A stretch of 64,000 bases of DNA from Gammaproteobacteria bacterium (GCA_030426545.1 JAUHYL010000012.1:5637-69636); one strand, 5' to 3'; positions 29,388-33,241 are shown, counted from the first letter of the stretch. Numbers and translations are program-made. Notes: generated from the letters alone by a model not told the origin.

Positions 29388-29450
29388 GTCATCCGTCGCG
29401 GCACGGAAAATTTGCAAGCCTCAGCTACGGCAGCGCACCCGGAGACGCTA

Positions 29451-32327
29451 TCAGCCGACGGCGATAGCGTTTTCCGTCGGGCACGACGCGTCATTCACTG
29501 CTTCCAGCGGTAGCGGCAGCGGCTGCTGCAACCTGAGGGCCAGCGCCATTTGCTCCGGGGCCAGCGGCTTACTGAAGTAGTAACCCTGGTACAAATCGCA
29601 ACCGCCACCCTTCAGCAAGGCCAGTTGCGCCTGCGTCTCCACTCCCTCGGCGACGATGTTTTTCCCCAGGTTTGTTCCCAGGGCGAGGATCGACTCGATA
29701 ATGGCCTGCGCGTCACGGTCCTCGCCCAACCTGTCAACAAAGCAACGGTCGATCTTCATCGTGTCGAATGACAGCCGGTGCAGGTGGCTGAGCGACGAGT
29801 AACCCGTGCCAAAGTCATCCAGCGCCAGGTGAACGCCCAGCGCATTCAATTCAGCCAGTACAGACTCCGATTTTGCATAATCCTCGACCAACAGGCTTTC
29901 GGTGATTTCCAGTTCCAGCGCAGCGGGCTCCATGCCCGCGCTTGCGACGGTACGCTGCACCGTTTCGATGATGTCCGAATACAGAATCTGGTGAGGCGAG
30001 AGATTCACCGCCACCTGCTGGATGCAAAGACCGTCATCACGCCATTGCGCAAACTGCCTGCAGGCTTCCTGCAGCGCGAATTCGCCCACCTGCGTGATCA
30101 GGCCGGTCTCTTCAGCGACAGGGATAAAAGCAGTCGGGCTGATCCAGCCACGCTCGGGGTGCTGCCAGCGCACCAGTGCTTCTGCGGAATGAATACAATG
30201 CGTGTCGGCGTCGACTTTGGGTTGGTAAACCAGACTCAACTGCTTCAGTGACAGGGCCTTCTTCAGTTCCTGACCGAGCGCGTAACGCTCGCTCATTTCG
30301 TCGTTCATGTTTGGCTCAAACAACTCATAGGCGCTACCGGGGTGCAGCTTCGCCCGGTACATCGCCAGGTCCGCATTCTTGAGCAGTTCCTCGGCTGAGG
30401 AACCGTCCTCCGGGTAGATGCTTATCCCCACGCTGACGTCGAGGTGAAACTCCTGGTTCAGTATATGGAAGGGCTCGCTCAGCGTATCGACCAGGCCAGC
30501 ACAGACCCGCGTGAGATCCGACAGCTCCTCGAGTCCGGAAATGGCAATAACAAATTCATCGCCCGAAATCCTGGCGACAGTGTCCGAATCACGAACCAGC
30601 CTCCGCAGCCGCCTGGCGGTTTCCTTCAGCACTCTGTCACCGACATGATGGCCCAGGGTATCGTTGACGAACTTGAACCGATCAAGATCGGCATAGATCA
30701 CACCGATCCGCTCACCGTCACGAGCTGCCTGGCGAATAGACTGTTCGAGGCGATCGATATAGAAAACGCGATTCGGCAGGCCGGTAATCTCATCGAAGTG
30801 TGCCTGAAAATGCAGTTTTTGCTGCCGATCCACCAGCGACATTGCCACCGTGAGTCGGCCGATCAGATCGCCCGTCTGTCCGACACGCCCCGCGTCGAAC
30901 GCATCGATCTCCTGTTCGTCCAGACACAGCGCGCCGAACAGGACGCCTTCCGATGCCAACGGGTAGATTCGCAGCATTTCCAGTCGTGCAGGAAAGTAGG
31001 CGCGCAGACTCTGGAAACGCGCACAATCGACAACGTGAATGCGATCCTGCTCACTCTCAATCATCGCGTACAGCGCAGCATCCAGTACCACCTGTTGCGC
31101 GCTTGTGTGCTGCCCGGCCGCTGTATCCCAGGCGGACAGGTGCCCGTTGGCGCCGTCACCGTCCAGCACCAGCACACCCAGGTAATCCACTTCCAGGAGG
31201 TCCGGAATCTTCTGCACGATCATCTCGGCAACGTTTTTCGCATCTGGCTGGGACAGCAGGATGCCGTCTATATCCGACATGGTGGTCAGCAACCCAAACT
31301 GACTGCCCAGCTTTGCCGCCATGCTGTTGAAAGACTGCCCGAGTTCCTCCAGTTCATCACCTGAACTGAGATCAATGCGCACATTGAAGTCGCCCTCGCC
31401 GAGCAGGTTGGCACTGGCCTGCAACTCGGACAAAGGCTCCAGCCGTTTCCGCGTATTGCGCACCACCAGCAGGACGACGCTGAGGGCAACAAAAAGCATA
31501 AGGCCTGGAAACAGCCAGCGGAAAAGCCGTATGGGCTCAAATACGGTGGCGCCCTCCTCCAGGGCGACAATCGTCCACGGCCGACTGGCATACTTCGAGG
31601 GGATGAAAATTTCCCGGGTAAACGCATACACCGCTGTTCCGTCCTGTGCCGTCCAGTGCAGGCGGCCATGACCGTCGGTGGTGTCCGCGTCAAGAATGTC
31701 CGCGGCATAGCGCCGCGCCTCGGAGTTGCAATAGAGCGCGCTGCCGCCATCCAGAACGCAAAATCGCCTGTACAGTATCTGTTCGTGCTCATTACCGTAC
31801 AGAAAGTCGGGCCTGAGCCGGGCGGCATACCCTGGTGATGGCTGTGCGTACCCTGCTTGCGGCAGGACGATAAGCCACAACGCGTCGGAGCCGGGGTCAC
31901 GCACGAGTAGGGGCCTGTCATCGACTACTCGGGCTGCATCCGCCAACAGGGAATAGTCGCTGGCATCCACTTCGCCCGCAATCTGCGAAAAACCGCCATC
32001 GCCGGTAATCGCCACCACACCGCTGGTTGCTGCCAACAGTTTCTGCAGGGTGCGCGGGGAGGCCGGGACACCAGGGTCGCGTATCCCCTGCTGTTCGCCC
32101 AGAATACCTGCCACCTCATCCAGGCGTTCGATAATGAGGCTGCCCTGAAAGCGTGTTGCATCCAGCAACCTTACGTAGGCCTGCTCCTCCAGCGAGTGTT
32201 CAATCTGCTTGTAGGACAGCCAGGCCACCCCGGCCAGCGGCACCAGGATGGAGACCACGAACAGCGCCTGCACACGGTGCATCAGTACTTGACTACCACC
32301 CGGGCGTTTGCCCCCTGTCGCGGCCAT
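29451..32327 (-). CDS. Membrane c-di-GMP enzyme: TM-periplasmic sensor-TM-HAMP-GAF-GGDEF-EAL
   Basis: Two TM segments, HAMP ('SSGDELEELGQSFNSMA'), GAF-like region, 'HFDEITGLPNR', RDSD I-site five residues before SGDEF, intact EAL motifs (EALVRW, EITES, DDFGTGYSSL, KID, EGVET). Confidence 0.92.
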   Translation of the reverse strand: MAATGGKRPGGSQVLMHRVQALFVVSILVPLAGVAWLSYKQIEHSLEEQAYVRLLDATRFQGSLIIERLDEVAGILGEQQGIRDPGVPASPRTLQKLLAATSGVVAITGDGGFSQIAGEVDASDYSLLADAARVVDDRPLLVRDPGSDALWLIVLPQAGYAQPSPGYAARLRPDFLYGNEHEQILYRRFCVLDGGSALYCNSEARRYAADILDADTTDGHGRLHWTAQDGTAVYAFTREIFIPSKYASRPWTIVALEEGATVFEPIRLFRWLFPGLMLFVALSVVLLVVRNTRKRLEPLSELQASANLLGEGDFNVRIDLSSGDELEELGQSFNSMAAKLGSQFGLLTTMSDIDGILLSQPDAKNVAEMIVQKIPDLLEVDYLGVLVLDGDGANGHLSAWDTAAGQHTSAQQVVLDAALYAMIESEQDRIHVVDCARFQSLRAYFPARLEMLRIYPLASEGVLFGALCLDEQEIDAFDAGRVGQTGDLIGRLTVAMSLVDRQQKLHFQAHFDEITGLPNRVFYIDRLEQSIRQAARDGERIGVIYADLDRFKFVNDTLGHHVGDRVLKETARRLRRLVRDSDTVARISGDEFVIAISGLEELSDLTRVCAGLVDTLSEPFHILNQEFHLDVSVGISIYPEDGSSAEELLKNADLAMYRAKLHPGSAYELFEPNMNDEMSERYALGQELKKALSLKQLSLVYQPKVDADTHCIHSAEALVRWQHPERGWISPTAFIPVAEETGLITQVGEFALQEACRQFAQWRDDGLCIQQVAVNLSPHQILYSDIIETVQRTVASAGMEPAALELEITESLLVEDYAKSESVLAELNALGVHLALDDFGTGYSSLSHLHRLSFDTMKIDRCFVDRLGEDRDAQAIIESILALGTNLGKNIVAEGVETQAQLALLKGGGCDLYQGYYFSKPLAPEQMALALRLQQPLPLPLEAVNDASCPTENAIAVG

Positions 32328-32980
32328 CAGAAGTTTTTCGCTATGCCGATAAAACTGCCGTTACCAGCGCGGATGATGTCATCCCTGCTGTGCTTCGCAG
32401 TCAGCGGCGATACGCTGCGGCCGTCCTGCCCCATGCTGTACAGGTCGTAATCGGTGTTGATTGGCACGAGGTTTTTATCTTTGCGCAATTTCCCCTTGCC
32501 TGGACTCCCACCACCGCCGCCTTTTTTTCCGGATTTACCGGGGCTGCTTTTCGAGGCACTGGTGGGCCCTGCGGCAATCCTCAGGTACTCGTAAGGGTTG
32601 CCCCAGGGGTCGCGCATGTCCTGCAGGCCTATGTCTTCGAGTGATTCCGGATAGCTGCTTCTGTCAAAGAAGAAGTCGGTGATCTCCTCCTCCATTTTCC
32701 TGATGTCCGCCTCGGCCAGTAACACGTCGGCTTTGTTCAGATATTCCTGGTAGGTGGGCACAGCGATCGACACCGATACCACGCCAATCGCCAGCGTTAT
32801 CATCAGCTCCAGCAGCGAAAAGCCGAGGCACGAATGCAGGGACGGGGGCTTTCGCGGAAAAAGCACGCCGGGAACCACTGATGCGGACAAGCTCCCGGTG
32901 GGACTTCCCTGTATGCCAGGCATCACTGGACCGCTCGCTGGAATGCGACCCGGAACGCCTGGTGGGTGACCCTGGTTCAA
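32327..32980 (-). CDS. Orphan prepilin, GspG-like major pseudopilin
   Basis: Class III signal peptide G|FSLLE (G codon 32822-32824) with E+5 and a hydrophobic helix; 'DPWGNPYEY', 'DYDLYSMGQDG', 'SRDDII'; the true start may lie nearer the cleavage site. Confidence 0.85.
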   Translation of the reverse strand: MNQGHPPGVPGRIPASGPVMPGIQGSPTGSLSASVVPGVLFPRKPPSLHSCLGFSLLELMITLAIGVVSVSIAVPTYQEYLNKADVLLAEADIRKMEEEITDFFFDRSSYPESLEDIGLQDMRDPWGNPYEYLRIAAGPTSASKSSPGKSGKKGGGGGSPGKGKLRKDKNLVPINTDYDLYSMGQDGRSVSPLTAKHSRDDIIRAGNGSFIGIAKNF

Positions 32981-33241
32981 AGGTTGGCCTATACAATGTT
33001 TAGCTTCTACCCATTAATAGCGTCAGCCGAGCAAGGCCTCTTTAGCGATAACTAGAAATCCGCACCGAATAGTGTCTCAGCGGGCCGCCTGGACGGTCTT
33101 TTTTTGAACTGGGTCACACAAAAACCGCCCTTCGGGTACGGCTAACGCCAGATTTTGTTCACCGCTTTGGCCGTTCCGGTGGTTTTCTCGGAGACAAAAA
33201 CCGCCTATTTTGATCGCTGTTCATACACTCAGAATCTCACT

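Follow-up and report, generated by a model that had tools for sequence, protein, structure and literature searches.

A GspG-like pilin gene coupled to the gene of a dCache-type cyclic di-GMP sensor: a candidate pilin-gated signalling module

The window analysed here is a stretch of 64,000 nucleotides from the draft genome of a gammaproteobacterium (Gammaproteobacteria bacterium, GCA_030426545.1, JAUHYL010000012.1:5637-69636), and its subject is a pair of genes that overlap within it. The first codes for a GspG-like prepilin (32327..32923) and the second for a membrane sensor of 958 residues with predicted cyclic di-GMP (c-di-GMP) output domains (29451..32327). Both genes, and all the protein features described below, lie on the minus strand. 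We consider, with moderate confidence, that the two genes constitute one conserved signalling module in which the sensor has the pilin as its own dedicated, membrane-anchored partner, one that gates c-di-GMP turnover. One receptor unit is argued for because the two genes are linked in both directions across genomes, because the output domains are exchanged on a constant pilin-sensor chassis and because assembly genes are lacking. An earlier reading of the window, made from the sequence only, had proposed that the pilin is a partner of the sensor rather than a secretion subunit. The conserved pairing supports this proposal; the physical contact and its site, the direction of signalling and the nature of the signal are the parts of it that we infer.

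Homologues of the window pilin are numerous, 2615 being retrieved with the pilin as query, and a scan with every species represented by one genome detected this pilin in at least 553 species genomes. Eighty loci were fetched from that scan and three more (L003-L005) were added, giving 83 loci examined. At 80 of the 83, a scoreable open reading frame (ORF) starts next to the pilin stop codon on the same strand, at most related loci between about 60 nucleotides before and about 60 nucleotides after it. A profile of the N-terminal 350 residues of the sensor matches 77 of these 80 downstream ORFs, and a whole-genome search added a 78th locus with a sensor (L027). The neighbour survey, which the sequence-only reading had set out beforehand, gave a strongly positive result: the next same-strand gene carries a homologous N-terminal sensor module at 78 of 80 loci from many phyla, whether its output is GGDEF-EAL, HD-GYP or kinase. 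At the two loci without an adjoining sensor (L065 and L071), a small accessory gene lies in between or the contig is short. The window sensor sequence alone, used in a phmmer search that avoids circularity with the profile, retrieves 65 loci.

The linkage holds in the reverse direction as well. The 31 strong sensor matches in 30 carrier genomes are all located in a pilin locus, 30 of them adjoining the pilin and one standing in tandem behind a first sensor, and 30 of the 34 pilin copies adjoin a sensor. Two tandem arrangements were observed. At one locus (G174:C3:16079-20246), a single pilin gene is followed by two tandem sensor paralogues. A second (G175:C12:229986-241773) carries two pilin-family genes in tandem before the sensor, a further pilin copy without a detectable sensor being found 10 kb away.

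The output changes on this constant N-terminal module. It is GGDEF-EAL at 36 loci (Pseudomonadota), HAMP-GAF-HD-GYP at 30 loci (Thermodesulfobacteriota, Planctomycetota, Acidobacteriota and others) and a histidine kinase at two loci; at the kinase locus of Nitrospira (L005), REC and HD genes follow the kinase gene. The phyla that possess the module comprise Pseudomonadota, Thermodesulfobacteriota, Nitrospirota, Planctomycetota, Acidobacteriota and others. The output type clusters on the pilin tree, with 6 changes versus 18.8 in shuffles, a pattern that is confounded with phylum and was for this reason dropped as evidence of co-evolution.

The homologues lie mostly beside this sensor and not in gsp or pil operons or beside unrelated genes. 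Clustering of the genes that neighbour the related loci revealed no recurring secretion or pilus assembly gene, and another prepilin ORF is present nearby at only 2 of 80 loci. About 20 loci (about a quarter) add a lipoprotein-like protein of about 130 residues and/or a protein of about 200 residues with two transmembrane (TM) segments and a HAMP-like part, for example at L005:6948-7993, L006:10590-10976, L010:6671-7267 and L071:5381-8260. The former is characterized by the motif GxWxT..P.Y.DRY.EI...FKNQ..I.W and the latter by HRIAGPLYRF...GDL...LRK.D.L..EA with a weak HAMP match (22 bits). A Pfam scan of both accessory proteins gave no family above cut-off, and both genes are absent from the window. 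Cultured carriers include the non-pathogenic Methyloversatilis sp. XJ19, Teredinibacter waterburyi Bs02 and Mangrovimicrobium sediminis. The same pair was also encountered on large secondary replicons of two cultured strains in a plasmid collection, annotated as 'prepilin-type...' or 'GspG' followed by 'EAL domain-containing protein'. In Legionella adelaidensis NCTC12735 (L122) it is located on the 451-kb 'plasmid 9' and in Comamonadaceae OTU4NAUVB1 (L123) on a 493-kb plasmid, where the pilin is annotated GspG.

The pilin itself is a prepilin by all the features that the sequence-only reading had listed, and the ORF and the profile scores bear these out. The predicted cleavage site lies in CLG|FSLLE, Glu is found at +5 and Pro at +22, and the segment CLG|FSLLELMITLAIGVV conforms to the G|F(T/S)LxE type with a hydrophobic helix behind it. 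DPWGNPYEY, DLYSMGQDG and DDI, all motifs of pseudopilins, are present and the mature part is devoid of cysteine. The Pfam models T2SSG (PF08334; 34.5 bits, cut-off 21) and N_methyl (PF07963; 22 bits, cut-off 21.2) and the model TIGR02532 (20.5, cut-off 16.3) all match above their cut-offs. The GspG equivalog model TIGR01710 gives 42 bits, far under its cut-off of 88.85, and a whole-genome search with PF08334 retrieved two canonical GspG genes and not the window pilin gene. The top matches of the pilin share a C-terminal motif, GKGKxRKDKNLVPINTDYDLYSMGPDGRSVSPLTAKHSRDDIIRANNGxFIGxAxxY, that is missing in canonical GspG and nearly invariant from Gammaproteobacteria to Nitrospira and Planctomycetota. 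Judged by this motif and by the sub-cut-off TIGR01710 score, the window pilin belongs to a subfamily distinct from canonical GspG.

Along the gene, the frame is open from TTG 32980 down to 32327 (217 residues). This TTG is probably too far upstream to be the start, which is most likely ATG 32923 (198 residues), the choice of the gene caller and a GTG in a relative of 86% identity (L003). A third candidate, GTG 32866, which would leave a leader of 15 residues, was ruled out, the codon being GCG in the same close relative. From ATG 32923, the predicted leader peptide (32822..32923) comprises 34 residues, is basic and ends in the cleavage-site Gly (CLG|F), which the alignments show to be nearly invariant before F/L/V-T/S-L-x-E. 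Leaders as called across the pilin family (P0001-P0120) have a median of 22 residues, an interquartile range of 14-30 and a net charge of about +3, the start calls being uncertain; they are long for a GspG-like protein.

The mature protein starts with the hydrophobic helix alpha1-N (FSLLELMITLAIGVVSVSIAVPTYQ; 32747..32821), which carries F1, E5 and P22. In the family alignments, E5 is invariant and P22 nearly invariant. In the AlphaFold model, the helix (residues 14-69) is predicted with a predicted local distance difference test (pLDDT) score above 90. A variable low-complexity insert rich in Gly, Lys and Ser follows between DPWGNPYEY and RKDK (32486..32569), as seen in the alignment and the model. 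Its column information is 0.76 bits and its pLDDT below 50, and the spacing from the end of WGNPYEY to RKDK is 33 residues versus 11-14 in most relatives. The most conserved part of the pilin is the C-terminal motif that defines the subfamily (GKGKLRKDKNLVPINTDYDLYSMGQDGRSVSPLTAKHSRDDIIRAGNGSFIGIAKNF; 32330..32485), with 3.35 bits per column versus 2.79 for the N-terminal helix; the invariant stretch of the head is RKDKNLVPIN...SPLTAKHSRDDI. The region of the Ca loop keeps its Asp and Gly residues (DLYSMGQDG...SRDDI) but is longer by an insertion of 11 residues (RSVSPLTAKHS), and a conserved extension of about 15 residues follows DDI. A profile search of the PDB found no solved structure that spans the C-terminal motif, the coverage being limited to the N-terminal helix, and Foldseek comparison of the pilin model with PulG and EpsG gave weak matches (E >0.03). 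For the fold of the head, the models thus support nothing beyond a putative GspG-like core.

The stop codon of the pilin gene and the start codon of the sensor gene overlap in the TGATG of 32325..32329, exactly as first described, and the A at 32327 is common to the TGA and the ATG. The sensor gene codes, according to Pfam, motifs and hydropathy, for a cytoplasmic N-tail, TM1, a dCache-like periplasmic domain, TM2, HAMP, a GAF-like region, GGDEF and EAL. This is the architecture that had been claimed for it, with the exception of the GAF domain: a Pfam scan of the window sensor found no GAF above cut-off, and the region is only homologous to the GAF of relatives. The hydrophobic segments lie at residues 19-39 and 269-292, and the Pfam spans are 297-340 for HAMP, 509-662 for GGDEF and 686-921 for EAL.

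The N-tail and TM1 (residues 1-39; 32211..32327) contain the positions that are best conserved outside HAMP, namely R18 (95%), F23 (93%) and P30 (98%) in the alignment of 61 sensor family members. Conserved positions outside HAMP are gathered in three places: R17/R18, F23, A27 and P30 in the N-tail and TM1, L46, L54, G62, R68 and L69 in the stalk, and F241, W251, F269 and F273 in the membrane-near part before or in TM2. The periplasmic domain (residues 40-268; 31524..32210) was characterized by AlphaFold and Foldseek. Residues 1-345 are modelled with a pLDDT of 90.0 and a predicted template modelling score (pTM) of 0.78, TM1 running into a long stalk helix that is followed by two alpha/beta modules, TM2 and HAMP. 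Foldseek aligned the modelled domain to the dCache domains of TlpA, TlpC, Tlp3, PctA, PctB and KinD (probability 1.0, E 1e-9 to 1e-5) and also matched it to an integrative WalK-YycH model. A Pfam scan of residues 30-295 gave no family at E up to 1, and the Cache models of Pfam matched 0 of 54 sensor family members. By its model topology, the periplasmic part is of the dCache fold, one that the Pfam models do not detect. Its alpha/beta modules are poorly conserved (1.28 bits per column).

TM2 (residues 269-292) and HAMP (residues 293-345) occupy 31293..31523, TM2 being assigned by hydropathy and HAMP by Pfam (45.1 bits); R293, P298, D324 and E325 are nearly invariant in the HAMP region. The linker domain of 155 residues that follows (residues 346-500; 30828..31292) is termed GAF-like from its homology to relatives. 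It aligns in phmmer searches with the region between HAMP and the output in 21 relatives, and Pfam calls GAF at the homologous region in 28 of 54 sensor family members. The GGDEF domain (30342..30803; Pfam 153.6 bits) bears the signature RDSD-x5-SGDEF, with an RDSD I-site and, as active-site motif, SGDEF, a variant A-site (30552-30593). The EAL domain (29565..30272; Pfam 234.8 bits) possesses the motifs EALVR, EITE, DDFGTGYSS, KID, EGVE and QGY. The RxxD I-site, the SGDEF and the intact EAL motifs of the sequence-only reading were therefore all located. Both domains carry their catalytic motifs and the sensor classifies as a GGDEF-EAL protein with predicted activity; the NCBIfam models of c-di-GMP phosphodiesterases all matched it under their equivalog cut-offs.

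The sensor gene, the pilin gene and a 318-bp upstream region form a unit of 3.85 kb (29388..33241, not assigned to a strand) that has, by synteny, an SDR gene on one side and the gene of a MaoC-type hydratase on the other, the genes flanking the pair being those of a thiolase, SDRs and the MaoC-type hydratase. In about 20 genomes from this genus (L100-L119), the orthologues of the SDR and MaoC-hydratase genes directly adjoin each other, and the pair is therefore a 3.85-kb insertion in this lineage. Three relatives of the genus carry the pair at other chromosomal places. Its distribution is patchy, with 4 of 37 genomes of the genus and 1 of 121 in a sample of the order. The GC content at third codon positions is 0.70-0.72 in the unit versus 0.76-0.77 in the flanking genes. 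A search of the insertion borders for mobility signatures found no direct or inverted repeat above 8 nucleotides, and on the minus strand of the unit no promoter or terminator candidate exceeded what shuffled sequences give. The plus strand has a hairpin resembling a terminator, with a T-run, at 33082-33099, in the 318-bp region 5' of the pilin gene and just before the MaoC-hydratase gene.

No other gene of a type II secretion system (T2SS) or pilus had been noticed in the window, and the whole 71-kb contig (C122) agrees with this, as the pilin profile retrieves no second prepilin match on it and no homologues of the two T2SS operons of the genome are present. These operons, with GspF and GspG, are located on contigs C31 and C114. 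Five further prepilin-type ORFs outside the T2SS operons (C114:1131-2561, C17:2784-3020, C93:9856-16495) match the profile by the N-terminal helix only.

A mechanism can be proposed for the pair. The prepilin would presumably be cut by the prepilin peptidase of the cell, its N-terminal helix would keep it anchored in the inner membrane, and it would there act as a co-receptor or gate of the sensor encoded directly behind it. The contact would most likely be made by the pilin helix against TM1 and the membrane-near stalk of the sensor. By analogy with the PilA-PleC pair described below, R18, F23 and P30 of the sensor and the invariant E5 of the pilin may take part in it, E5 and R18 being situated in the same cytoplasmic leaflet of the membrane. 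The state of the pilin, i.e. free, bound via its nearly invariant head or drawn into a fibre, would be relayed through HAMP and the GAF-like domain to GGDEF-EAL and would set the synthesis or the breakdown of c-di-GMP. A stricter version, to which we give only tentative credence, makes of the pilin fold an obligate non-fibre subunit of a heteromeric receptor: the dCache-HAMP sensors would work only with their own pilin, and the head, not the dCache pocket, would receive the envelope signal.

Several points weigh against a pilin that gates the sensor by contact. Conserved adjacency is evidence of a shared function and not proof of a physical complex, and the positive-inside rule would likewise place an Arg where TM1 meets the cytoplasm. 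The pilin head carries 3.35 bits per column versus 1.28 in the alpha/beta modules of the sensor, and a head so much better conserved than the dCache modules speaks against a conserved interface at which head and dCache domain would dock. The conserved binding partner of the head may be a different one, for example Ca2+, which GspG binds, some component of the envelope or the accessory lipoprotein. Its AlphaFold model is poor (pLDDT about 50), the long helix alone being confident. Moreover, the draft genome of 141 contigs gave no Peptidase_A24 (prepilin peptidase) match, A24_N being found at a sub-threshold level only. A prepilin peptidase is present in all 12 other genomes tested, six of them of the same genus, and the gene of the window genome is probably in an assembly gap. 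Finally, the features F1, E5 and P22 that serve fibre assembly are all kept in the pilin, so that it may be a real fibre subunit.

This last point leads to an explanation that we regard as unlikely, in which the pilin is a true fibre subunit, polymerized by a T2SS or type IV pilus machine encoded elsewhere, while the sensor reads the unassembled pool in the inner membrane and c-di-GMP reports extension, retraction or surface contact. The canonical and conserved alpha1-N with F1, E5 and P22, the prepilin peptidase of the 12 other genomes and the two GspF/GspG operons of the window genome are all in keeping with it, and the known precedents operate in this way. Nevertheless, major subunits are normally encoded in the operon of their own machine, whereas another prepilin gene is near the pair at only 2 of 80 loci and assembly genes never recur there. 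A variable low-complexity insert and a long C-terminal extension are unusual in a tightly packed fibre subunit, and in PilA-PleC and PilA-PilS the pilin is the own subunit of the pilus, with no dedicated extra gene.

The proteins might also never touch, the sensor reading a small ligand by its dCache domain and its c-di-GMP controlling the production, assembly or export of the pilin, for example through c-di-GMP-binding assembly ATPases. Small ligands are the usual partners of dCache domains, co-transcription would couple the dosage of the pilin to that of the sensor, and poorly conserved alpha/beta modules suit lineage-specific ligands. A diffusible messenger, however, gives no reason for a one-to-one adjacency that holds across phyla for pilin and sensor alike. 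In the sensor, conservation centres on TM1 and the stalk, and the kinase variants together with the accessory 2TM-HAMP and lipoprotein genes of about 20 loci suggest a membrane receptor complex. We judge this explanation improbable. As for an orphan pseudopilin that came to lie by chance next to a c-di-GMP enzyme, the window taken alone would allow it, being a single instance with no other pilus gene nearby. Such a meaningless adjacency is refuted by the pairing at 78 of 80 loci across phyla, by the 31 of 31 strong sensor matches that lie in a pilin locus and by the insertion of the pair as one unit, and is hardly credible.

If the pilin is indeed a dedicated partner of the sensor, signalling by pilins would no longer be confined to a secondary role of structural subunits but would extend to a hard-wired component of a receptor, kept in hundreds of species from several phyla. 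Inputs are known for only a minority of c-di-GMP enzymes; the enzyme of this module may take a dedicated protein of the pilin fold as its input, a proposal open to test. Where such a locus has a gene annotated 'GspG' or 'type II secretion system protein', its product is probably no component of a secretion system. Current domain models furthermore overlook the dCache family which the module defines, and the module can be located cleanly by the C-terminal motif of its pilin. No account of such a pilin-sensor pair came up in full-text literature searches, and it is likewise absent from a census of HD-GYP architectures and from a review on the sensory inputs of c-di-GMP signalling. This matches the statement of the sequence-only reading that no characterized system has this form, the principle of pilin-to-sensor signalling itself being known from PilA-PleC and PilA-PilS. 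The novelty lies in a GspG-like pilin that is dedicated to, and coupled in an operon with, a dCache c-di-GMP sensor of its own, which suggests that a pilus-subunit fold was reused as part of a signal receptor.

The closest of these systems is found in Caulobacter crescentus, where PilA binds with its TM helix to TM1 of PleC, a sensor with a periplasmic domain similar to that of dCache chemoreceptors, and the signal raises c-di-GMP via PleD (PMC7196804). As proposed for the window, an inner-membrane pilin is the input to a sensor with two TM segments and a dCache-like domain, and the output is c-di-GMP. The Caulobacter pilin, unlike that of the window, is a structural component of the Cpa/Tad pilus, its gene lying with those of the pilus machine, and the sensor is a histidine kinase with a separate cyclase. 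The GspG-like pilin of the window has a large conserved head and is a dedicated protein whose gene accompanies only that of the sensor, and this sensor bears its own GGDEF-EAL (HD-GYP in relatives). In Pseudomonas aeruginosa, according to the work cited in PMC7196804 and PMC6058289, PilS senses inner-membrane PilA by an intramembrane contact with the conserved N-terminus of the pilin. The sensor thus measures an inner-membrane pilin, as in our proposal, but PilS differs from the window sensor by its six TM segments and the absence of a periplasmic domain; the output, through PilS/PilR, is pilA transcription and the pilin is the major type IVa subunit.

With GspG, PulG and EpsG, the major pseudopilins of T2SS, the window pilin shares the leader, the G|F...E5 site, alpha1, DPWGxPY, DLxSxGxDG...DDI, the absence of a disulfide and the T2SSG match. 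It departs from GspG by the sub-cut-off TIGR01710 score, the low-complexity insert, the insertion of 11 residues in the Ca loop and the C-terminal extension, and its subfamily by the lack of a gsp operon context and the adjoining sensor at 78 of 80 loci. The arrangement proposed here has further counterparts outside the pilins. In LuxP-LuxQ and YfiR-YfiN (TpbB), a small extracytoplasmic partner encoded beside a sensor with two TM segments controls that sensor, and YfiN is a HAMP-GGDEF enzyme. Together with YycH/YycI-WalK, these pairs resemble the proposed module in that a small extracytoplasmic or membrane partner gates a two-TM sensor with a domain of the PDC/Cache or PAS type. LuxP, YfiR and YycH/YycI are unlike the window pilin in possessing neither a pilin fold nor a prepilin signal, and no sequence relationship to them was found.

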